Positions 1-17,376 are shown, counted from the stretch's first letter. The stretch: DNA of 17,376 nt from a virus (IMGVR_UViG_3300048907_000177:1-17376); one strand, 5' to 3'. A program made the numbers and translations. The notes: generated by a model not told the origin, from the sequence alone.

Positions 1-127
1 CCCGCGCCTGTTCTCCCTTTCGCGCCCCGCGCGCACAGATTGTGACGGATAGTGACGGTTCTCGACCAGGCGCCGCCGCTTCTCGGTAAGACTGAGCCGC
101 GGCTCTGGACTCCGCCCCTGCGGGACC
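1..127. repeat. Terminal overlap, copy 1 (identical to 17250-17376)
   Basis: Base-by-base comparison shows 127/127 identity with the window end. The overlap includes the first 76 nt of the terminase ORF. Confidence 0.95.
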
Positions 128-1641
128 TTAATCCGGACACTTCGTACGGGTTTGAGGTGATCGACTACGCCCGCGAAATCCTTCACCGTCCGTTACTGCC
201 GTGGCAAGAGTTCGCTGTGGTCCACGGCGGCGAGATGCTCGACGGCGCCGACTGCTCCCCGGCGCTCGGCGCGCACAGCGACGCGTGCGCGGCCAGAGAT
301 CCCCGCGACTTGACGCGGCTGTGCCGCCCGCGGTTCCGCATCGTGCTGCTGCTGGTGGCTCGGCAGAACGGCAAGACCGAACTACCGGTGATCCTGTCGA
401 TCTTCTGGCAGTTCAAGCAGCGGCTCCCCTTGATCGTCGGCACGTCCACGCAGCTGTCGTACGCGAAAGAGTCGTGGAAGAAAGCGGTCAACCTGGTCGG
501 GCGGACACCGGCGCTGGCTGACCAGCACGCGCCTGCCCGACAGTGGTATCGGCTCCAGAACAACGAGACGGAGTCGTTCACGTACGACGGGTCCCGGTAC
601 AAGATCGCCGCGGCCAACGAGGAAGGCGGCCGGTCGCTGAGCGTGGACCGGGCGATCATGGACGAGATCCGACAGCACAAGACGTACGCGGCGTGGGACG
701 CGCTGGAGCCGGCATGCTCGCCGCCGGACGCCCAAATCTGGTGCCTGTCCAACGCTGGCGACTCACGGTCAATCGTGCTGAACGATCACCAGGACGACGC
801 ACAGGTGTTCATCGAGACCGGCGTAGGCGACGACCGGATGTGCCTGCTCGAATGGTCGGCGCCGGAAGACGCTGAGCCCGACGACGTGGAAGCGCTGCTC
901 CAGGCCAACCCGCGGGTCGGGTACGGCGCTGATCTGGAGGTGCTGGTCAAGGCGGGCCGGAAGGCAAAGCGGCTCGGCGGGCAGGCGCTCGCTGGCTTCA
1001 AAACCGAGCGCATGTGCATCCGGGTGAAGCTGCTCTCCGCAGCGATCGACCCCCGGCGGTGGGCAGAGGCGCTGGCGCCGGGTGAGCTTGCCGAGCACCG
1101 CGACCGCCTGGCCGCGGTCATCGAGCTGAGCCCGAACGGCGACCATGCCACGCTCGGCGTGGCCGCGGTGGTCGACGGTGAGGACGTGCGGGTCGAGACC
1201 GTGGCCGAATGGTCCGGCGCCACCGCGGCGTCGCAAGCCGAACGTGCGCTACCTGGTCTGATCGGCATGATCCGGCCGCGGGTGCTGGGCTGGTTCCCGA
1301 CCGGCCCGGGGGCGGCGATCGGCGCCAAGCTCGGCGCGGCCGGCCAGCCGGCGTGGCTGCCGCGGGGCACCGGGCTGGCCGAGATCCGGGCCGAGACGCC
1401 GGCCGTGTGCATGGGGTTCGCTAAGGAGATTGCCGGCGGCACGCTGTTGCACTCCGGTCAGCCGATGCTCGATGCGCAGCTGGCCGAGACCGAATGGCAG
1501 TCACTCGGGCAGGCGCGGGTGTTCGCCCGGAAGAACGGCAACACGGACGCCGTGTACGCGGTGGCCGGCGCGGTCCACCTCGCGCGGACGCTGCCGGTGC
1601 GGCTCAAGGTGGCGCGCCGGTTCCAGGCGGCGCCGGGCTGA
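52..1641 (+). CDS. terL: Terminase large subunit
   Basis: 529 aa. It has a Walker-A-like VARQNGKTE, a Walker-B-like AIMDEI, and an N-terminal PRLWTPPLR...LLPWQ motif typical of actinophage TerL. The C-terminal half is nuclease-like. GTG at 52 is the first start after the in-frame TGA at 43-45. Confidence 0.9.
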   Translation: MTVLDQAPPLLGKTEPRLWTPPLRDLNPDTSYGFEVIDYAREILHRPLLPWQEFAVVHGGEMLDGADCSPALGAHSDACAARDPRDLTRLCRPRFRIVLLLVARQNGKTELPVILSIFWQFKQRLPLIVGTSTQLSYAKESWKKAVNLVGRTPALADQHAPARQWYRLQNNETESFTYDGSRYKIAAANEEGGRSLSVDRAIMDEIRQHKTYAAWDALEPACSPPDAQIWCLSNAGDSRSIVLNDHQDDAQVFIETGVGDDRMCLLEWSAPEDAEPDDVEALLQANPRVGYGADLEVLVKAGRKAKRLGGQALAGFKTERMCIRVKLLSAAIDPRRWAEALAPGELAEHRDRLAAVIELSPNGDHATLGVAAVVDGEDVRVETVAEWSGATAASQAERALPGLIGMIRPRVLGWFPTGPGAAIGAKLGAAGQPAWLPRGTGLAEIRAETPAVCMGFAKEIAGGTLLHSGQPMLDAQLAETEWQSLGQARVFARKNGNTDAVYAVAGAVHLARTLPVRLKVARRFQAAPG

Positions 1642-1671: not shown

Positions 1672-4600
1672 ATGCCGGTCATGGGGTGGATTGCCGCGGG
1701 TCTGCAAGTCGCGCGTGACGTGCTGGGCCTGCCGCGCCCGTTCCATCTCGACCTGGAGCCGCTCCAGACTTTCGACCTTGCCCCGCAGCCGGTGGATCGT
1801 CTGCTGGCCGCGATGCGGTCCGGCGCCGGCCCGGCGTCGCGCACTGACGCGCTGTCCATCGCCGCGGTGCAGCGCGGCCGAAACGAGCTGTGCGCGCTGG
1901 CCACGCTGCCGCTGCGCCTGTTCCAGGGGCTGACGCCGGTCGACTCGCCGCTGTTCCGCCAGTTCGATCTTGACGTGCCGAACGTCGTGCACATGTCGAT
2001 GACGATCGAGGATCTCGCCTTCGAGGCGATCGCGTGGTGGCAGGTCGTCGGGCAGGACTTCGACCGCTACCCGATGGCAGTTCGGCGCATCGAGCCCTGC
2101 CGTGTGCAGTTGACCCGGCCGGACGGCCCGCCGCGGCCGGATGACCGGCGCTACGTGTGGATCCGCCGGGAGACACCCGCAGTCGGATGGGACATGGTGC
2201 CCGCGTCGGAGATGATCCGGTTCGACTCGCCGAACCCCGGCCTGCTCAAGTCGTGCGGCCGGATGATCCGGATCGCGCTGGCGTTGGACCGGCTGATCGA
2301 GATGTACGGAAACAACCCGGCGCTGCGTGATCTGTTCACCGCGAACACGGACGCCCCGGTTGACATGCCGGAAGACTCCGAGGTGGCCGCGTTCCTGGCC
2401 GAATGGGCTGCGCTGCGGTCGGTGACGCCGGCCGGCTACCTGCCCCCGCAGTTCAAAAAGGCGGACGTGTCCGTGCCGTCGCCGCGGGATCTCACCCTGG
2501 TGGAGTTGCGCTCTGAGGTCAACCTCGCGCTGGCCAATCACCTCGGGGTGGACCCGGAAGACCTGGGCGTGAACACGACGTCGCGGACGTACTTCAACGG
2601 CGTGGACCGTCGGCAGGAAAAGATCAACCGGACGTACGCGCCGTACATGAAAGCGATCACGGACCGGCTGATGATGGGCGACGTGACCCGCCGCGGGTAT
2701 CAGCCGCAGTTCGATCTGACCGGCTACCTCAAGTCGGACCCGAACACGCAGGCAAGCTACTGGGCTGCCCTGAAGGGACTCAACGTGGTCGATGAGCTGT
2801 GGATCGGCGAGCAGGCCGGCATCGATCCGGCGGTGACCCGGCGGGCGATGCGTGCCGCCCCGGCACCGGCGCCGGCCGCGGACGCCGCGGTGAACGGGCG
2901 CCGGCCGGCAATCCAGCTCGGCGACATCACGCCGGCCCGTACCTTCGCCGACTGCCGGCCGGCGTACACGTTCCAGGCGTCTGAGTTCGCCGGGTCAACA
3001 CCGGCGCCGACCGTGGACCGCGCGGCCCGAACCATCACCGGCTTGGCCGTCCCGTACGGCGCGGTGGCCAACAAGTACGGCCTGAAGATCACGTTCGAGC
3101 CCGGGTCCCTGGAGTACGGCGACGCCGCGCGCATGCCGCACCTGAAGGACCACATGACGCCGGTCGGTTTCCACCGTTCCGTGAAGGACTCGGCCAACGG
3201 CCCGATCGTCGAGCTCGCCGTGTTGGACGCGCCGGACGGAAGCCCTGCCAAGACCGAGCGTGACCAGCTGCTCTACGACGCTGAGCACGGCCTGTACTCA
3301 GGCCTGTCGATCGGCGTGGACTACTCGCTCGACCCTGCCGACGGTGACGTCGAGATCGACGACGACGGGGTCTATCACGTCCGGCGTGCCACGTGGCGCG
3401 AGACCAGCACGACGTACATGCCCGCATTCGATGACGCACGCGTGACCAGAGTGGCCGCGAGCCTGACAGGAGGAACCACTGTGGAACGCTGCCAGCACTG
3501 CGGGCACCCGCACATGCCGGGGATCGCGTGCCAGACCTTCATCGCGCAGCTGCGCACGCAGCCCGACCCGGCGCCGCAGCCCGACCCGGTACCGGCGCCG
3601 CAACCTGCCCCGGTGCCCGCCCCCGCACCGGGGCAGCCCGACGCCGCTCAGTTCGCCGCGTTCGCTCAGGCAATGGGCATGCAGGTGTCGCCGCTCGGCC
3701 TGATGGCGCCGGGCCCGGTGCCGGTCAGCCCGCACACCGGTGTCGCCGTCGTCAGCGAGCCGGTCCCGTACCGGTACGACCGGCACGGCAACCTGCGAGC
3801 CGGCGCGCATGATTTCTCGACGGACATCTTCATCGCGCACAACCCCAAGTACGACGGCCCGGAAGACCGGACCGCGGCGGCCAAGCGCATCGAGCACTGG
3901 CTGTCGTACGCGTTCGGCGGGGAGGATGGGCAGCAGCACCTCGGCAAGCTGGCCGTGCCGGGGTCGGCCGCTCAGCAGCAGTACGCCATCACGCCGGCCA
4001 ACGTCGTCAACCTGAACTACCCGCAGAACCATCCGGAGATGTACGTCGACCAGCTCGACTACCTCTATCCGATGTACCAGGAATTCAACAAGGGCACGCT
4101 GGACGTGCTGACCCCGTTCGTGCTACCGAAGTTCTCGGCGTCGTCGGGCCTGGTCGCGGATCACGTGTCCGGCGTGGAGCCGACCCCGGGCGCGTTCTCG
4201 GCGACCGCGCAGACGATCACACCGTCAGCGCTGTCCGGCAAGGTGGAGATGCTGCGTGAGGTCTTCGATCAGGTCGGTTCCCCGCAGGCGTCGGGACTGA
4301 TCTGGCGGCAGATGGTCCGCGGCTGGTACGAGGGCATCGAGGCCGCGATTCAAGCGTTCTTCGTCGCGAACGCGGCCAGCATCCCGGACATCGCGCTGGG
4401 CACGGCGGTCACGGACGCCGCGATGGACACGTCCCTGGCGACGTTCATCGCCGCTCTCCAGTACATCCGCGGCGGCGACCGCTACCGCAAGATCTTCACC
4501 CAGGTTGATCTGTACAACAAGCTGATCAACGCGAAGGACACCACGAACCGGCCGCTGTACCCGCCGCTCGGCGCGATGAACGCAGCCGGCGTGGCGGGCC

Positions 4601-4848
4601 CGGAGGCGAACTACATCAACGTCCGCGGGAAGCTGTTCGTCCCTGAGTGGGCGACCGCGGCGTCGGGCTCGGTGGCCGCGTCGTCCTGGATGATGGACCC
4701 GGACGTCGTCGGCGTGTGGCTGTCGGTCCCCAAGCGGATCGATCTGGAGTGGCGCGTGGCGTGGGTGGACATCGGAATCTGGGGTTACAAGGCCCTGGCC
4801 ATCACGGACTTCACGCGTACCCGTGAGCTGATCTACGACCCGGTCTAA
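1672..4848 (+). CDS. Portal / HK97-type prohead protease / major capsid protein in one continuous reading frame
   Basis: 1058 aa with no in-frame stop. Roughly aa 1-390 are portal-like (SIAAVQRGRNELCALATLPLRLF, EMIRFDSPNPGLL, LVELRSEVNLALANHLGVDPEDLGV, SRTYFNGVDRRQEKINRTYAPYMKAI). Roughly aa 450-598 are prohead-protease-like (ITGLAVPYGAV, PHLKDHMTPVG, GLYSGLSIGV, RETSTTYMPAFDDARV). A Pro/Ala linker follows. Roughly aa 650-1058 are HK97-fold capsid-like. Confidence 0.85.
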   Translation: MPVMGWIAAGLQVARDVLGLPRPFHLDLEPLQTFDLAPQPVDRLLAAMRSGAGPASRTDALSIAAVQRGRNELCALATLPLRLFQGLTPVDSPLFRQFDLDVPNVVHMSMTIEDLAFEAIAWWQVVGQDFDRYPMAVRRIEPCRVQLTRPDGPPRPDDRRYVWIRRETPAVGWDMVPASEMIRFDSPNPGLLKSCGRMIRIALALDRLIEMYGNNPALRDLFTANTDAPVDMPEDSEVAAFLAEWAALRSVTPAGYLPPQFKKADVSVPSPRDLTLVELRSEVNLALANHLGVDPEDLGVNTTSRTYFNGVDRRQEKINRTYAPYMKAITDRLMMGDVTRRGYQPQFDLTGYLKSDPNTQASYWAALKGLNVVDELWIGEQAGIDPAVTRRAMRAAPAPAPAADAAVNGRRPAIQLGDITPARTFADCRPAYTFQASEFAGSTPAPTVDRAARTITGLAVPYGAVANKYGLKITFEPGSLEYGDAARMPHLKDHMTPVGFHRSVKDSANGPIVELAVLDAPDGSPAKTERDQLLYDAEHGLYSGLSIGVDYSLDPADGDVEIDDDGVYHVRRATWRETSTTYMPAFDDARVTRVAASLTGGTTVERCQHCGHPHMPGIACQTFIAQLRTQPDPAPQPDPVPAPQPAPVPAPAPGQPDAAQFAAFAQAMGMQVSPLGLMAPGPVPVSPHTGVAVVSEPVPYRYDRHGNLRAGAHDFSTDIFIAHNPKYDGPEDRTAAAKRIEHWLSYAFGGEDGQQHLGKLAVPGSAAQQQYAITPANVVNLNYPQNHPEMYVDQLDYLYPMYQEFNKGTLDVLTPFVLPKFSASSGLVADHVSGVEPTPGAFSATAQTITPSALSGKVEMLREVFDQVGSPQASGLIWRQMVRGWYEGIEAAIQAFFVANAASIPDIALGTAVTDAAMDTSLATFIAALQYIRGGDRYRKIFTQVDLYNKLINAKDTTNRPLYPPLGAMNAAGVAGPEANYINVRGKLFVPEWATAASGSVAASSWMMDPDVVGVWLSVPKRIDLEWRVAWVDIGIWGYKALAITDFTRTRELIYDPV
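3481..4848 (+). CDS. Possible nested, in-frame internal-start product (linker plus major capsid protein, 455 aa)
   Basis: A perfect AGGAGG at 3468-3473 is followed by a 7-nt spacer and an in-frame GTG at 3481. This sits exactly between the protease-like and capsid-like segments. Confidence 0.5.
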   Translation: MERCQHCGHPHMPGIACQTFIAQLRTQPDPAPQPDPVPAPQPAPVPAPAPGQPDAAQFAAFAQAMGMQVSPLGLMAPGPVPVSPHTGVAVVSEPVPYRYDRHGNLRAGAHDFSTDIFIAHNPKYDGPEDRTAAAKRIEHWLSYAFGGEDGQQHLGKLAVPGSAAQQQYAITPANVVNLNYPQNHPEMYVDQLDYLYPMYQEFNKGTLDVLTPFVLPKFSASSGLVADHVSGVEPTPGAFSATAQTITPSALSGKVEMLREVFDQVGSPQASGLIWRQMVRGWYEGIEAAIQAFFVANAASIPDIALGTAVTDAAMDTSLATFIAALQYIRGGDRYRKIFTQVDLYNKLINAKDTTNRPLYPPLGAMNAAGVAGPEANYINVRGKLFVPEWATAASGSVAASSWMMDPDVVGVWLSVPKRIDLEWRVAWVDIGIWGYKALAITDFTRTRELIYDPV

Positions 4849-4898
4849 GTCGTACCCGGCGGTGGGGTGGTAAGTGCTCACGCGCTTGCCGCCCCCCA

Positions 4899-4916
4899 AT
4901 GTTTCACGTGAAACAT
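4899..4916. repeat. Perfect 18-bp AT-rich palindrome ATGTTTCACGTGAAACAT in the capsid-downstream intergenic gap
   Basis: Read directly: ATGTTTCAC followed by GTGAAACAT. It lies in the 93-bp gap between 4848 and 4942. Confidence 0.9.
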
Positions 4917-4941
4917 CCAAGATCGAGGGAAGGGGCCCGGG

Positions 4942-5349
4942 ATGGGCGACCAGACGAACGAAGAGATCGCCGCGGAGCGTGACCGGCTCCAGGCCGAGAA
5001 TGAGCAGCTCAAGGCGCAGCTGTCCGCAGTCGGCGCGGGCACGACCCAGGCCGCGGCGCCCGCGCACACGTTCCAGCTGTCGGAGGCCGACCGGCAGGAA
5101 TTGGAGCAGCGCGGTTGGATCAACTACCGCGGCACGGTCATGACGACCGACGACGTCCGCCGCGCGCTCGGCAAGGATCAGGGGAAGGTGAAGATCAAGG
5201 ACGCTCCGAAGGACGCGCCCAAGCCTCCGACGCTGCCGACCCGCAACCCGGTGGCCGGCGTCGACTACGTGCCCCCGGCGACCGCGTCCGACGTCCCGAA
5301 CACGGAGGCCCCCTCGGACCGGCCTCGCTCCCGGCGCGGCGGGAACTGA
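4942..5349 (+). CDS. Coiled-coil protein of unknown function (scaffold- or decoration-like by position only)
   Basis: 135 aa. An RBS-like GAGGGAAGGGG lies upstream. The N-terminal heptad-like stretch is EEIAAERDRLQAENEQLKAQL, and the tail is Lys/Pro-rich. Confidence 0.7.
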   Translation: MGDQTNEEIAAERDRLQAENEQLKAQLSAVGAGTTQAAAPAHTFQLSEADRQELEQRGWINYRGTVMTTDDVRRALGKDQGKVKIKDAPKDAPKPPTLPTRNPVAGVDYVPPATASDVPNTEAPSDRPRSRRGGN

Positions 5350-5355
5350 CCTGCC

Positions 5356-5958
5356 ATGGCCTGGGCTCCCGACTACGTGACAGCGGCGAACCTCGATTCC
5401 TACCTGGAGATCGCGGACTCCGTCGATGACACGTTGCTGGCAGGCTGGGCCACCGCGGCGTCCCGCGCGGTCGACAACTGGGCGAACCGGCAGTTCGGGC
5501 AGCTCGCCGCGGCGGCGGCCCGGACCTACCGGGAGGTGCCGTTCTACAACTGGCGGACCGGCCTGTGGGAATTGCAGATCGACGACGTCCAGGACTTGAC
5601 CGGGATGACGGTCAACGGGGTCGCGTTCGCGAGCTCAGGCGCGGTGCTGCTGCCGGACAACGCGCCGTCCGATGGCGTCCCGTACACCCGGATCGGGTTC
5701 GCGGTCGTGCCTGTGCAGGCGAGCCCTGGCGTGTCCGTGACGAACGTGATCGTCGCGAAGTGGGGCTGGACTGCCGTGCCCGCGGCGGTACCGATGGCCT
5801 GCCGCTTGCAGGCGGCCCGCTGGAACTTCCGGCGTAACTCGCCGCACGGTGTGGCCGGCTCGCCCGATCAGGGGTCCGAGGTGCGGCTGTTGGCCAAGCT
5901 GGACCCGGACGTGGCCGTGACCCTGGCCGGTCTCGGTCGACCGCGGCGGCCCGGCTGA
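5356..5958 (+). CDS. Head-to-tail adaptor (gp6-like connector)
   Basis: 200 aa. The N-terminus PDYVTAANLDSYLEIADSVDDTLLAGWATAASRAVDNWANRQF matches the typical head-tail connector signature. Its position after the capsid module fits. Confidence 0.75.
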   Translation: MAWAPDYVTAANLDSYLEIADSVDDTLLAGWATAASRAVDNWANRQFGQLAAAAARTYREVPFYNWRTGLWELQIDDVQDLTGMTVNGVAFASSGAVLLPDNAPSDGVPYTRIGFAVVPVQASPGVSVTNVIVAKWGWTAVPAAVPMACRLQAARWNFRRNSPHGVAGSPDQGSEVRLLAKLDPDVAVTLAGLGRPRRPG

Positions 5959-6383
5959 TGGATCTCTACGCGCTGGCCACCCAGATCGGCATGGCCCTCA
6001 ACGCGGTCACGCCGGCCCTGCGGGTCTACCCGTACGGTGCCGACAAGATTGAGGCGCCGGGCGTGGTCGTCACCATGCCGGACGAGTACGGGCCGTCCTC
6101 GTACGGCCGGGGCGCCCGGCACCTGACCTCGATCGGCGTGCTGCTGTGTGTCCGCGGCGCCGCGGGGGTCCGGCCGCGCCGGGCGTCGCTGAAACAGCTG
6201 TACGCCTACTTGCAGGAGACCGGCACCGGGTCGATCCTCAAGGCCGTGGAGGAATACGCGTACACGGCCTGCATCCCTGGCACGATGGCCTGGAAACGAA
6301 CCACGTTCGACGTCCTGTCAATCGCGGGCGTCGAATACCTCACTGCTCTACTCGAATTCGACGCCGATGGCGTAGCGACCTAG
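5958..6383 (+). CDS. Neck / tail-terminator-like protein
   Basis: 141 aa. It is TGATG-coupled to the adaptor and sits immediately upstream of the major tail gene. The motif RVYPYGADKIEAPGVVVT resembles neck and tail-completion families. Confidence 0.6.
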   Translation: MDLYALATQIGMALNAVTPALRVYPYGADKIEAPGVVVTMPDEYGPSSYGRGARHLTSIGVLLCVRGAAGVRPRRASLKQLYAYLQETGTGSILKAVEEYAYTACIPGTMAWKRTTFDVLSIAGVEYLTALLEFDADGVAT

Positions 6384-6393
6384 GAGACCGGCC

Positions 6394-6804
6394 ATGCCTT
6401 ACACCCCCGTGCACGGCAAGGGGACCGTGCTCAAGCTCGGCGCCAACGACATCAGCCTGTCCACCCAGAATTCGGCGTTCTCCGGGTCGGCCGAGATCGC
6501 GAAGTCGTCCGGCTACACCGTCACGAACCACACCAAGGTCGCCGGGATCGTCGACGGACAGTTCACGGCGAACGGCTGCTACGACATCGGCGCGACGACC
6601 GGCACGAACACGCTGCTGGAGGGCAAGGAAGGCACGTCGTTCTCGATCACGCGGCAGGTGGCGGGCACCGGCTCGGGTAAGCCGCAAGAGGTCTTCACCG
6701 GCCTGCTCTCCAAGTTCGACGTGTCCGACCCGTACGACGGCCTGGTCCAGTGGTCGGCGACGTGGGAAGTCAGCGGTACGGTGAACCGGACCGCTCAGCC
6801 CTGA
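6394..6804 (+). CDS. Major tail protein
   Basis: 136 aa with a strong RBS (TAGGAGA). Composition is Gly/Thr/Ser-rich and beta-type, ending in WSATWEVSGTV. It lies directly upstream of the chaperone pair. Confidence 0.75.
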   Translation: MPYTPVHGKGTVLKLGANDISLSTQNSAFSGSAEIAKSSGYTVTNHTKVAGIVDGQFTANGCYDIGATTGTNTLLEGKEGTSFSITRQVAGTGSGKPQEVFTGLLSKFDVSDPYDGLVQWSATWEVSGTVNRTAQP

Positions 6805-7738: not shown

Positions 7739-8728
7739 ATGCCGAATCAGGTCACGCTCACGTTCGCCGGTGAGGAAAAGCCGCTCGTCTCGTCGATGGA
7801 CAACGTCGGATCCGCGGCTGACCGTATGGGTGATCAGGTGGGGTCAGCGGCGCGGCGGGTGTCGGATAGCTCGGGGGAGGCGGCCGGCGGACTGCATCGT
7901 ACGGGTGAGGCGGCAGATAAGGCCGAGACGTCCCTGATCGGTGTCCACGACGTCATCGACGGCACGGCGACGATCATGCAGGGGCCCGGTAAGGCCGGCG
8001 TGGTCGCCTACATTCAAGGCTGGGCTGATCTCGCTGGTGGTCTGGCCCCGCTGATTTTGCAGCTGGCAGAGACGAAGGTGGGCATCCTCGCTCAGGCCGC
8101 GGCGTCGCATGTCGCCGCCGCGGCGTCGAAGGTGTGGGCCGGTGCCCAGTGGCTGATGAACACGGCGCTGCTGGCCAACCCGATCACGTGGATCATCGTC
8201 GGAATCGTGGCGCTGATCGCGGTCATCGTGCTGATCGCGACCAAAACGGACTGGTTCCAGAGGGCGTGGCGTGCGTCGTGGAACTGGATCAAGACCGCGG
8301 CCGAGAACACGTGGGAGTTCATCAAGAAGATCCCGGGTTGGCTGGAGTCGGCGTTCAAGAACGTGGCCCGGTTCATCTCGGCGCCGTACCGGGCCGCGTT
8401 CAACCTGATCGCGGACGCCTGGAACTCGACGATCGGCCGGCTGTCCTGGACGGTGCCGGGTTGGATTCCGGTGATCGGCGGGAATACGATCAGCGTGCCG
8501 AACCTGCCGCACTTCCATGCCGGCGGCCGGGTGCCGGGCGGTCCGGGCCAAGAAGTGATGGCGGTGCTCCAGGGCGGCGAGACCGTGTCGACGGAGGCCG
8601 GTTCGAGCGGGGACCGCACGGTGGTGATGGGCGACGGCCCGCTGATCCGGTACGTGCTCGACGCCCTCGCGACCGAGGTGTCTCGCCGCGGCGGCAGACC
8701 TGAGCACCTCGGCTTGAAGGCGGTCTGA
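7739..8728 (+). CDS. Tape measure protein (unusually short, 329 aa)
   Basis: The N-terminus is alpha-helical and Ala-rich. The central hydrophobic segment is PITWIIVGIVALIAVIVLIA. Trp-rich repeats are present, and the C-terminus reads HFHAGGRVPGGPGQEVMAVLQGGETV. It lies after the chaperone genes. Confidence 0.8.
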   Translation: MPNQVTLTFAGEEKPLVSSMDNVGSAADRMGDQVGSAARRVSDSSGEAAGGLHRTGEAADKAETSLIGVHDVIDGTATIMQGPGKAGVVAYIQGWADLAGGLAPLILQLAETKVGILAQAAASHVAAAASKVWAGAQWLMNTALLANPITWIIVGIVALIAVIVLIATKTDWFQRAWRASWNWIKTAAENTWEFIKKIPGWLESAFKNVARFISAPYRAAFNLIADAWNSTIGRLSWTVPGWIPVIGGNTISVPNLPHFHAGGRVPGGPGQEVMAVLQGGETVSTEAGSSGDRTVVMGDGPLIRYVLDALATEVSRRGGRPEHLGLKAV

Positions 8729-17075: not shown

Positions 17076-17300
17076 TCGGTCGCGTGCTGTGCAGGCTAGG
17101 CCTGCATGAATGGCTGCCATGCAGCGGATGGTGCGCCCGATGCGGGAGGGATCCGCGGTGAAAGATCTACGGAGAGTGACGGTCGTGTTGTGACCGGCCA
17201 CAATGGATTGTCGCGGCCCGATTTTTTCCGCGACCACGACCGGGGGACACCCGCGCCTGTTCTCCCTTTCGCGCCCCGCGCGCACAGATTGTGACGGATA
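17076..17300. other. Non-coding packaging region (candidate cos site and terminase recognition)
   Basis: Hairpins are TGCAGGC-tag-GCCTGCA (17090-17106) and CTGCATG/CATGCAG (17102-17124). GTGACGG or GTGACCGG repeats lie at 17176, 17190, 17291 and 17301. A T6 tract spans 17223-17228. The region lies between HNH and terminase. Confidence 0.5.
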
Positions 17301-17376
17301 GTGACGGTTCTCGACCAGGCGCCGCCGCTTCTCGGTAAGACTGAGCCGCGGCTCTGGACTCCGCCCCTGCGGGACC
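17250..17376. repeat. Terminal overlap, copy 2; 17301-17376 is a duplicate of the terminase 5' end
   Basis: Exact copy of 1-127. A length of 127 equals the largest k-mer normally used by SPAdes-type assemblers, which suggests a circular-contig overlap. Confidence 0.95.

Follow-up and report, generated by a model that had tools for sequence, protein, structure and literature searches.

A conserved portal–protease–capsid reading frame with a predicted nested capsid gene in a small actinophage

The portal protein, the S78-type prohead protease and the HK97-fold major capsid protein of a small actinophage share one reading frame, and this fusion is real and conserved. The window, meaning the whole 17,376-nt stretch of DNA that was analyzed (IMGVR_UViG_3300048907_000177), is a complete 17.2-kb siphovirus-like actinophage genome: its ends carry an exact 127-nt terminal repeat, and the genome is therefore complete and circularly assembled, with a unique length of 17,249 bp. 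The uninterrupted frame that the original prediction placed at 1672–4848 was recovered by ORF listing and translation as 1058 codons plus a stop, with zero internal stops, and all 69 complete relatives have it as well. We consider it probable that this frame holds nested genes, with the bulk of the capsid protein made from an internal in-frame start and a minor full-length polyprotein carrying the protease. The features of the locus are as follows.

52–1641, plus strand: large terminase (phrog_9, E 1.7e-52), directly upstream of the fused ORF, in head-module context
1672–4848, plus strand: polyprotein ORF (portal–linker–protease–CCHC knuckle/linker–major capsid protein), 1058 codons, ATG start
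1732–2826, plus strand: HK97-family portal domain, aa ~21–385 (Pfam, phrog_12, 3kdr profile match, AF2/Foldseek)
2827–2964, plus strand: linker 1, aa 386–431, Pro/Ala-rich, variable in length, always in frame
2965–3462, plus strand: S78/HK97-type prohead serine protease domain, aa ~432–597 (phrog matches, invariant H494/S546, Pfam scores of homologs)
3468–3474, plus strand: internal Shine-Dalgarno (SD) sequence AGGAGGA, within the codons ACA GGA GGA (Thr-Gly-Gly), 6 nt 5' of the GTG
3481–3483, plus strand: candidate internal in-frame start GTG (Val604 of the read-through protein), with a homologous ATG or GTG across loci
3481–4848, plus strand: nested capsid gene, predicted 455-aa product (CCHC knuckle, Pro-rich linker with a short helix, HK97-fold capsid protein)
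3490–3531, plus strand: CCHC zinc-knuckle-like motif, C607-x2-C610-x3-H614-x5-C620, at the N-terminus of the nested product
3532–3741, plus strand: linker 2, aa ~621–690, Pro-rich and variable, with a short helix at aa ~658–667
3742–4845, plus strand: HK97-fold major capsid protein domain, aa ~691–1058 (AF2/Foldseek, phrog_2263, Pfam scores of homologs)

Homologs of about 1000 aa number in the hundreds and are found both in viral contigs of about 17 kb and in actinomycete chromosomes. With the window protein as query, more than 120 clusters (90% identity) of 868–1081 aa were retrieved, nearly all covered over their full length, and about 58–66 of the clusters among 50%-identity representatives are triple fusions. 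In the related loci (36–71% identity to the window protein), the frame from portal to capsid is free of stops in 69/69; this set comprises the complete relatives that were fetched, excluding loci cut by a contig end, and since the loci are phylogenetically related, counts and P-values drawn from it are nominal. The fused frame turned up in numerous independent metagenomes, and isolate genomes have it too (Micromonospora, Actinoplanes, Amycolatopsis and Saccharothrix, among others). The 120 homologs that were aligned show three conserved blocks and two variable Pro/Ala-rich linkers, the lengths of which always vary by whole codons. The order of the blocks is as originally proposed, but their limits had to be refined to nt 1732–2826, 2965–3462 and 3742–4845. 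Homolog N-termini open with "MGW" and the window has an ATG at 1681 (M4), so that the true portal start may be this codon; nothing else is altered by the choice.

The identities given to the three blocks in the original prediction hold up in profile searches, in fold matches and in the Pfam scores of homologs. The N-terminal block is an HK97-family portal by both profile and fold. Pfam PF04860 (Phage_portal) matches aa 76–367 (E 6e-9, profile positions 14–305 of 321) with 35.9 bits, slightly below the gathering threshold of 39.1, which end-to-end homologs exceed (59.9 bits for the 60% identical P0054, 103 bits for P0421). A portal match was also obtained with phrog_12 (1e-7), and the family profile matches the HK97-family portal 3kdr in the PDB (E 1.4e-8). 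The AF2 model has a pLDDT of 70–92 over aa 50–390, and its top 50 Foldseek matches are all portals, including 3kdr (3.5e-12), HK97 (8cez, 2.1e-11, and 8fql), GTA, T5 and P23-45.

The middle block is assigned to the S78-type prohead proteases, with predicted activity. No Pfam match was found for the window segment, and TIGR01543 scores 17 bits (E 5e-3), below its cutoff of 59. End-to-end homologs do pass the 21-bit threshold of PF04586 (Peptidase_S78), with 50.7 bits for P0421, 48.0 for P0351, 43.8 for P0396 and 38.9 for P0435, so that S78 membership of the sub-threshold window segment rests on transitive homology. Protease matches were obtained with phrog_80 (2e-4) and with phrog_2263, the latter at positions 22–179 (1e-15) for the protease part and 343–470 (1e-4) for the capsid part. 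The candidate catalytic residues, His494 (3151–3153) and Ser546 (3307–3309, in GLSIG), are invariant in the family, line up with HD and GLS(V/I)G in relatives that match PF04586, and show the expected His...GxSxG distance of about 50 residues; we take them to be catalytic on the model of HK97 gp4. The domain is modeled with a pLDDT of 70–87 and ends in PAFDDARVTRVAAS. The checks on the N-terminus and the middle that were proposed at the outset came out in favor of a portal and, by way of homologs, of an S78-type protease.

No Pfam or NCBIfam match was found for the capsid segment of the window, but homologs score above threshold: P0054 for Phage_capsid_4 (PF25209; 46.9 vs 27 bits) and P0435 for Phage_capsid (PF05065; 25.6 vs 24.2 bits). 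The AF2 model of aa 604–1058, made from 79 sequences (pLDDT 82.8, pTM 0.72), gave 342 Foldseek matches in the PDB at E <= 1e-3, the best being phage Bobi (8ec8, 4.5e-10) and HK97 Head II (2ft1, 3.9e-9); others were phiXacJX1, LME-1 and GTA (6tb9).

How could a single frame supply the portal and hundreds of capsid subunits? An internal capsid start would solve this copy-number problem. The polyprotein of the original prediction stands, but the prediction overlooked a conserved internal SD and start at 3468–3483, which point to a nested gene pair and not to a polyprotein alone. These signals lie exactly at the protease/capsid boundary. By duplex energy, the internal SD (−11.9 kcal/mol) is the strongest of the 25 candidate starts in the window, whereas the SD of the portal ATG is very weak, at −1.9 kcal/mol. 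At the homologous site, each of the 69 loci has both an SD and a start, with every SD at −7.9 kcal/mol or below; of the other in-frame starts, 6% reach −7 kcal/mol. The start codon is ATG in 55 of these loci and GTG in the other 14, with spacers of 5–9 nt, giving the pattern ACA GGA GGA n5-9 ATG/GTG. A strict GGAGG or AGGAG with a 4–10-nt spacer is found in 50/69 loci, compared to 0.02 expected per 30 codons. When the whole ORF was scanned in 10-codon bins across the 69 loci, SD-backed starts reached at least 15% of loci in only three bins: aa 600–609 (87%), 370–379 (52%) and 380–389 (19%). At the internal site, GGA makes up 77% of the Gly codons, vs 6.8% ORF-wide, an excess that indicates selection at the synonymous level, and the residues encoded over the SD vary (TGG, DGG, QGE, KGD, RKD) while its purine core persists. 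The frame thus has a conserved signal for starting translation internally, one that is presumably used. This sequence evidence also backs the earlier suggestion that the full-length product is probably minor.

The same position serves as a gene start where the frame is divided. In the split relative L094, the portal-protease gene ends with VAASTHTPKGSPP and a stop, and a separate capsid gene begins via an ATGA overlap (SD −9.3) at the position homologous to the internal start of the window. Other split or two-domain relatives share this internal start, with M-x-C-x-x-C following it (METCEHCG in L088, MKCTKCG in L089); the CCHC motif opens the capsid part there as well. This motif is invariant in a 27-sequence alignment and absent in some distant loci; in the window, the first ~30 residues of the nested product, which include it, are modeled well (pLDDT 84–90). 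It is zinc-knuckle-like, with putative metal binding. Linker 2 follows, in the position of the delta or scaffold-like N-terminal extension of capsid proteins; it may have a scaffold role, and it presumably contains the maturation cleavage site. The GC3 of the capsid segment is higher than that of the portal in 62/69 loci and that of the protease in 61/69, while portal and protease are alike. This would fit stronger expression of the 3' part of the ORF, but could instead stem from amino-acid composition.

For the protease, on the other hand, no convincing start of its own was found in the window or the close clade. The best candidate, M393, lacks conservation and has an SD of just −6.0, and was rejected. 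V448 is an invariant residue, but its codon is mostly GTC in relatives, and it is thus no start codon.

We infer that ribosomes use the internal start, that its product outnumbers the full-length one, that the polyprotein acts by tethering or nucleation at the portal vertex, and that it cleaves itself. Initiation at the weak portal start (1672 or 1681) would yield the 1058-aa portal-protease-capsid polyprotein; with no stop in the frame, ribosomes that start there must make it. Initiation at the strong internal site (SD 3468–3474, GTG 3481) would yield the 455-aa knuckle-bearing capsid protein, which is predicted to be the abundant product and the source of the hundreds of shell subunits. The polyprotein would be a minor product and the sole source of portal and, in the window clade, where the protease domain lacks a start of its own, the sole source of protease. 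In HK97-like heads, the portal C-terminus and the capsid-protein N-terminus both point into the capsid interior. The protease would thus be covalently tethered inside the procapsid, where it would cut the linkers and release mature portal and capsid protein. A point against this is that, if only portal-linked proteases are packaged, twelve per head is few compared to HK97.

The polyprotein might even be a dedicated assembly initiator, with a 12-copy portal ring tethering 12 proteases and 12 capsid domains on the side that faces inward. Shell growth would in that case begin nowhere but at the portal, and every head would receive a set amount of protease, matched to the number of portal subunits. 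Free capsid protein made from the nested start would finish the shell, and the tethers would be severed only afterwards. Nucleation of the shell by 12 polyproteins at the portal vertex, as originally proposed, is topologically plausible; we put forward the dedicated initiator only tentatively. If true, it would be a covalent answer to two long-standing questions about the assembly of tailed phages, namely how one and only one vertex comes to hold a portal and how the protease gets inside the head.

Do the covalent links have any function at all? The genes might be nested simply because an ancestral stop or ATGA overlap between neighboring head genes was lost and read-through is tolerated; with the capsid gene retaining its own ribosome-binding site and the protease cutting the linkers anyway, tethering would be unneeded. 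All three architectures do coexist: fully fused, portal / protease-capsid (common, 41/149 representatives) and portal-protease / capsid (rare among relatives). A single-base indel at the ATGA overlap suffices to switch from one state to another. Comparison with relatives, proposed at the outset as a way of detecting separate genes, found the close clade fused and portal / protease-capsid forms among distant relatives. On the protease+capsid tree, fused and unfused labels are interleaved and indistinguishable from random at deep distances (29 changes vs 30.4 +/- 2.3; nearest neighbor in the same fusion state in 50/96), although the deep tree is star-like and the random pattern may only mirror its poor resolution. 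Since portal fusion is not universal and the forms are interleaved, the portal link may be dispensable or nearly neutral. However, architecture is uniform within each neighborhood of at least 50% identity (fused throughout the window clade and the P0200 clade, protease-capsid throughout the P0253 clade), and many junction codons (CGA, GGA, CAG) are one mutation away from a stop. A stand-alone S78 protease was not found among the 149 representatives; it is always joined to the portal, the capsid protein or both, and the rarity of portal-protease / capsid splits is a further point against functionless links. In the window clade, the protease without a start of its own makes the portal-protease link, at least, obligatory. 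On balance, links without any function seem rather unlikely.

At the other extreme, the polyprotein could be the only product, with no internal initiation and every capsid subunit cleaved from a portal-protease-capsid precursor. The frame is open and necessarily read through from the portal start, and the annotations of cultured phages accept protease-capsid fusions at 1:1 (PMC5513430, PMC9671004). A ~20–35-fold excess of portal and protease would then be degraded or left unassembled, and the SD-like motif inside the frame would serve to pause translation or would reflect a constraint on the amino acids. A pause site, however, needs no in-frame ATG or GTG at 5–9 nt, yet 69/69 loci have one, and an amino-acid constraint is at odds with motif residues that vary while the purine core and the rare GGA codons persist. 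The same site being a real gene start in L094, the contrast between the portal start, nearly without SD, and the internal site, whose SD is the best in the genome, and the GC3 difference between the 5' and 3' parts of the ORF also make a polyprotein alone quite improbable. Finally, the idea that the genes are truly separate, with a stop or frameshift concealed by an indel from sequencing or assembly, can be dismissed: apparent frameshifts in linker 2 of L095 and L096 show that such variants or errors occur, but no direct support for one was found, and a single frame conserved across independent assemblies, both metagenomes and isolate genomes, with linkers that always differ by whole codons, excludes it.

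The window protein has relatives among cultured phages. Protease-capsid fusions in tiny actinophages, which the original prediction named for cluster EE, are documented for clusters AN, AM and AU and for RRH1 (PMC5513430) as well as for cluster EE (PMC9671004). A search of the literature found no portal fused to a protease-capsid protein, in agreement with the original statement that no such case was known. The fusion proteins of Arthrobacter cluster AN/Decurrovirus (Elkhorn gp7, Adaia gp5), Rhodococcus RRH1 (Orf7), Gordonia SallySpecial (gp8) and Microbacterium cluster EE, along with the "capsid polyprotein" of PAJU2, are kin of the window protein. Homology to two-domain proteins extends over aa 448–1058 by blastp (E 1e-60 to 1e-106). 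The tiny-actinophage genes were also found by tblastn, and identity to the cultured-phage fusions is <30%. Genome size (14–17 kb) and head-module order are alike. Elkhorn gp7 has an internal SD and ATG at aa 160, immediately behind the motif that marks the end of the protease in the alignment. In Adaia gp5 they lie at aa 162, the equivalent position, preceded by a similar motif, and in RRH1 Orf7 at aa 274, where correspondence to the domain boundary is only probable. No published mention of a nested capsid start in these phages was found. All of these phages encode the portal separately: in Elkhorn there is a 4-bp gene overlap, and in RRH1 and SallySpecial, lysis genes lie between the portal and the protease-capsid gene. 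In the window, by contrast, the portal is joined to the protease-capsid part in one frame, and the separate start of the latter has been lost. The window is thus an architectural variant of the phrog_2263 family, and departs from its two-domain layout with a separate portal gene.

Two uncultured phages of ~17 kb, L091 and L092, resemble the window in genome size and gene order, and their capsid protein is homologous (32–35% identity to P0253, the query that retrieved them, to which the window capsid is ~36% identical). Unlike the window, they have three separate genes for portal, ClpP-type protease (CLP_protease/SDH_protease family) and capsid, without fusion. The three domains of the window belong to the same HK97-type families as the portal gp3, protease gp4 and capsid protein gp5 of HK97. 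As in HK97, nothing between protease and capsid stands out as a scaffold gene of its own, and the capsid protein has an N-terminal extension where the delta domain sits in gp5. In HK97, however, the three genes are separate and the protease is targeted non-covalently, whereas in the window all are in one frame, and a CCHC knuckle and Pro-rich segment take the place of the helical delta domain.

In phages and viruses with nested protease/scaffold genes, the upstream start is weak and a stronger internal start makes the abundant structural protein, and the protease enters the procapsid covalently joined to the assembling protein. Such genes with in-frame internal starts, a long protease form and a shared C-terminus are C/Nu3 of lambda, UL26/UL26.5 of HSV-1 and gp17/gp17.5 of HFTV1, the last established by Ribo-seq and mass spectrometry (bioRxiv 10.64898/2026.09.13.751334). 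The lambda gpC protease is of another family than that of the window. In those systems the nested gene encodes a scaffold, which is taken out later on, whereas in the window it would encode the major capsid protein, extended at its N-terminus, and the long form bears a portal at its N-terminus as well. The portal-fused, probably nested locus is thus a new architecture for a strategy that is itself already known.

The ORF at 1672-4848 (+) runs for 1058 codons with zero internal stops, which confirms the original prediction that portal, protease and capsid share one frame, and the three domain calls made there are borne out by profile, fold and homolog Pfam matches. In an alignment of 120 homologs, three blocks are conserved (aa ~21-385, ~432-620 and ~685-1058), and two variable linkers rich in Pro and Ala (linker 1 and linker 2) lie between them. 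The portal block matches Pfam Phage_portal at E 6e-9, slightly below the gathering score, and also phrog_12; the profile of its family matches the solved HK97-family portal 3kdr (1.4e-8), and the AF2 model is confident, its top 50 Foldseek matches all being portals (3kdr, 3.5e-12; HK97, 8cez/8fql). Direct matches to the protease block are weak (phrog_80, 2e-4; TIGR01543, 5e-3); over its whole length, the block can be aligned with two-domain relatives bearing Peptidase_S78 (E 1e-60 to 1e-106), with which it shares an H-D motif (invariant H494), a G-L-S-x-G motif (invariant S546) and the end motif PAFDDARV..VAAS. A full-length AF2 model made with 27 sequences gave a pLDDT of only 25-45 for the capsid block. 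Remodelled with a 79-sequence alignment, aa 604-1058 reached 82.8, and the Foldseek matches are HK97-fold capsid proteins (Bobi, 4.5e-10; HK97 Head II, 3.9e-9). One end-to-end homolog (P0435, E 7e-145) scores above the Pfam gathering threshold in all three families, Phage_portal, Peptidase_S78 and Phage_capsid, and another, 60% identical to the window protein (P0054), passes Phage_portal and Phage_capsid_4.

The fusion is neither an artefact nor rare. With the window protein as query, homologs of 868-1081 aa were found in more than 120 clusters (90% identity), nearly all with full-length coverage and most on ~17-kb contigs (JGI, Logan, ENA, NCBI). There are 293 relatives in IMG/VR and six in GTDB genomes (Actinoplanes, two Micromonospora, Amycolatopsis, Streptomyces and Saccharomonospora), and a second search found more fusions in isolate chromosomes of Amycolatopsis thermoflava (8.7-Mb contig), Saccharothrix and Actinokineospora. 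Every fetched locus lying whole within its contig has a single stop-free frame from portal to capsid; the 69 complete fused loci encode proteins with 36-71% identity to the window protein. The lineage, with hundreds of sequences, is widespread in actinobacterial phages and prophages. Fused-type elements lie within large chromosomal contigs (L084, Micromonospora mirobrigensis, 569 kb; P0448, A. thermoflava, 8.68 Mb), which implies that these are integrated prophages. Public databases already include the proteins with generic names, the automated labels on the ~1000-aa fusions being "phage portal protein" and "prohead protease" or "HK97 family phage prohead protease". No GenBank phage record searched has the fusion, no cultured phage there carries it, and no near-identical DNA was found among GenBank phages. 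The nearest cultured phages, at less than 30% identity, are those of Arthrobacter cluster AN, Adaia, RRH1, and Gordonia phages SallySpecial and Emperor; the comparison with them that was proposed with the original prediction finds the portal separate and protease-capsid as one fusion gene.

The window has an exact 127-nt direct terminal repeat (1-127 = 17250-17376), the signature of a circular-assembly overlap, and is therefore a complete, circularly assembled genome of 17,249 bp (GC 67.7%), belonging to a very small, siphovirus-type phage. Genes flanking or following the fusion include:

52-1641, large terminase, directly 5' of the fusion ORF (phrog_9, 1.7e-52)
4942-5349 (+), 135-aa protein encoded just 3' of capsid, preceded by a strong SD (-11.2)
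7739-8728 (+), very short tape-measure-like protein of 329 aa, with PHROG matches

Besides the short tape-measure-like protein, the region 3' of the fusion encodes an adaptor between head and tail, a tail terminator, the major tail protein, a Neck1-type protein, minor tail proteins, and a primase-helicase of D5_N/DUF5906 type. The top PHROG match of the 329-aa protein is an endolysin family (phrog_971, 8e-28) and many tape-measure families match too, so it is probably a tape measure that includes a lytic function as a domain. A stand-alone endolysin or holin gene was not recognised in the window. Neither an integrase nor a repressor is detectable there by Pfam, and there are no tRNAs. The 135-aa protein, kept 3' of the fusion in many relatives, has a coiled coil at its N-terminus (EEIAAERDRLQAENEQLKAQL) and a disordered tail. 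Its segment PAHTFQLSEADRQEL (about 5052-5094) resembles PAYTFQASEF (2958-2994), just N-terminal of the protease domain. The protein could be a scaffold-like or decoration protein with a docking or cleavage motif common to the polyprotein.

How can one frame supply all three functions? Tailed phages and herpesviruses, to our knowledge, universally build their heads with a portal, a maturation protease and a major capsid protein, three components required at very different copy numbers. This stoichiometry paradox would have a conventional solution in a capsid gene nested in frame. All in-frame ATG, GTG and TTG codons of the fused ORF were scanned in the 69 loci by pairing the upstream 15 nt with the anti-SD. 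A start backed by an SD in at least 15% of loci occurs in just three 10-codon bins, aa 600-609 (87%), 370-379 (52%) and 380-389 (19%). The aa-604 site follows the pattern ACA GGA GGA n(5-9) ATG/GTG in nearly all loci, the start codon being ATG in 55 and GTG in 14. A strict core (GGAGG or AGGAG, spacer 4-10) is found at this site in 50 of the 69, against 0.02 expected per equivalent window, and its energy is -7.9 kcal/mol or lower in 69/69, while 6% of other in-frame starts reach -7. GGA makes up 77% of Gly codons in the seven codons before the start versus 6.8% ORF-wide (nominal P ~1e-76, for loci that are non-independent). In distant loci, the amino acids of the motif differ and the purine core is retained. 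In the window, the site reads:

3468-3474, SD AGGAGGA, followed by the spacer ACCACT
3481-3483, start codon GTG (Val604)
3490-3531, CCHC motif C-x2-C-x3-H-x5-C (aa 607-620), directly after the internal start

With a duplex energy of -11.9, the SD here is stronger than at any other of the 25 candidate starts in the genome; the figure for the portal ATG is -1.9. The capsid segment exceeds the portal segment in third-position GC in 62/69 loci and the protease segment in 61/69, with no difference between portal and protease; this pattern fits stronger expression of the 3' part, and composition effects may also contribute. The original prediction that the full-length product is a minor species gains support, though the conserved internal capsid start had been missed. 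The CCHC residues (C607, C610, H614 and C620) are invariant in the close clade, with pLDDT 84-90, and the motif also stands at the capsid start of split relatives and is absent from several distant loci. It appears zinc-knuckle-like, and a zinc knuckle would be an unusual way for a capsid or scaffold region to begin.

Other candidate starts fared less well. A protease start at invariant Val448 (PTVDxxARTITG) was rejected, the codon being GTG in the window and mostly GTC elsewhere, with no SD upstream. The aa ~370 start is not convincing: it stems from a conserved peptide (YWKALKDMGV) of a single subclade, its codons are common ones and its spacing is poor, and the window lacks it. In linker 1 ("site A", reference aa 381-411), a good AGGAG/GGAGG plus ATG is confined to certain loci, most of them distant (L058, L061, L067, L073, L078, L080, L085 and L087), which could possibly make a protease-capsid product too and hence three nested products. 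No good linker-1 SD plus ATG exists in the window clade, where the candidates are weak and unconserved. At the front of the ORF, neither portal ATG (1672 or 1681) has a recognisable SD; the portal may be translated weakly, or by coupling to the terminase gene, which ends at 1641. Homolog N-termini begin MGW..., equivalent to the second ATG (1681, Met4) rather than the ORF start at 1672.

The internal start is also present in relatives with other gene arrangements. Splits into portal-protease and capsid genes are rare. In the one clean case, L094, the portal-protease gene ends with VAASTHTPKGSPP and a stop, and a separate capsid gene begins via an ATGA overlap at the homologous spot, with an SD of -9.3 upstream. 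Two loci annotated in the same way (L095, 3716-3719; L096, 3931-3991) were rejected as clean splits, since their C-terminal tails look out-of-frame, as if from frameshifts inside linker 2; this suggests real variants or assembly errors. The internal SD and ATG, then M-x-C-x-x-C, recur in loci with a separate portal and a protease-capsid gene (L088 and L089). P0253 (MKCTKCG...) was set aside as evidence for a split capsid gene, its 1.3-kb contig being uninformative on architecture; its IMG/VR relatives L089 and L090 have a separate portal followed by protease-capsid. Among cultured phages, genes annotated "major capsid and protease fusion" are:

3706-5289, Elkhorn (L001)
3183-4784, Adaia (L099)
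4439-6424, RRH1 (L097)

Each has one strong in-frame SD plus ATG: at aa 160 in Elkhorn gp7, directly after the motif aligned with the window's VAAS; at aa 162 in Adaia gp5, after a similar end-of-protease motif and with a stronger SD than the annotated start; and at aa 274 in RRH1 Orf7, where its place at a protease/capsid boundary is tentative. The sole comparable candidate in SallySpecial gp8, at aa 134, is tentative in the same respect. On this sequence evidence, the fusion genes of Elkhorn, Adaia and RRH1 may be nested gene pairs. Two sibling ~17-kb uncultured phages with shared gene order and a homologous capsid protein lack the fused S78 protease and have instead:

3084-3764, separate ClpP/SDH-type protease gene (L091)
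3113-3790, separate ClpP/SDH-type protease gene (L092)

This looks like replacement of one protease family by another within one head module.

Is the covalent link itself selected? Architecture is uniform within neighbourhoods of at least 50% identity, the window and P0200 clades being all fused and the P0253 clade all protease-capsid. Among 50%-identity representatives (~37-47% mutual identity), fused and unfused forms are interleaved, and in a quick test by NJ tree and Fitch parsimony, fusion-state labels were indistinguishable from shuffled ones; the reason is either repeated switching at the portal junction or a lack of resolution in the star-like tree. This distribution of fused, unfused and split forms leaves a serious rival, though one we consider unlikely: that fusion is a tolerated stop-loss without special function. 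A free S78 protease was found in 0/149 family representatives; it is always joined to portal, capsid protein or both, which suggests that covalent tethering is this protease lineage's route into the procapsid.

In the proposed scheme, the long product is the whole polyprotein, made from the portal start, and the nested product would be the capsid protein itself, presumably abundant, 455 aa long and carrying an N-terminal CCHC knuckle and Pro-rich extension at the position of the delta/scaffold domain. Some full-length polyprotein must be made, because no stop halts ribosomes starting at the portal. The scheme predicts a minor precursor of ~114 kDa, an abundant primary product of ~49 kDa and a mature form of ~40 kDa. 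Within the window's clade, no start serves the protease separately (Val448 is usually GTC, and the linker-1 candidates are weak and unconserved), which makes the polyprotein its only source. In HK97-like heads, the portal C-terminus and capsid-protein N-terminus both face the head interior, and the fusion is thus topologically compatible with assembly. Initiation at the internal site, the ratio of the products, tethering or (as the original prediction proposed) nucleation at the portal, and self-cleavage are inferred. The fusion would offer a system, provided by nature, in which covalent links fix both the delivery of the protease and the coupling of portal to shell, and in which assembly-initiation models are testable by shifting one stop codon.

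Fusions of protease and capsid are known from clusters AN, AM and AU and RRH1 (PMC5513430) and from cluster EE (PMC9671004), and a PAJU2 "capsid polyprotein" is cited in PMC8306868. In the full-text literature covered, mostly outside subscription journals, no account came to light of a portal fusion with protease and/or capsid, or of protease-capsid fusion genes that contain a nested capsid start. For the "capsid and protease fusion" genes of cultured SEA-PHAGES clusters (AN and others), the nested start suggests two overlapping genes, which, if so, has consequences for annotation and for the reading of virion proteomics. Nested protease/scaffold genes are known, and the arrangement here matches the strategy of nested in-frame genes in lambda C/Nu3 and HSV-1 UL26/UL26.5. 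The strategy was demonstrated recently for HFTV1 gp17/gp17.5 by Ribo-seq and mass spectrometry (bioRxiv 10.64898/2026.09.13.751334). In lambda and herpesviruses, however, the nested genes yield scaffold proteins, whereas here the nested product would be the capsid protein itself, to which this form of stoichiometry control would thus be extended.
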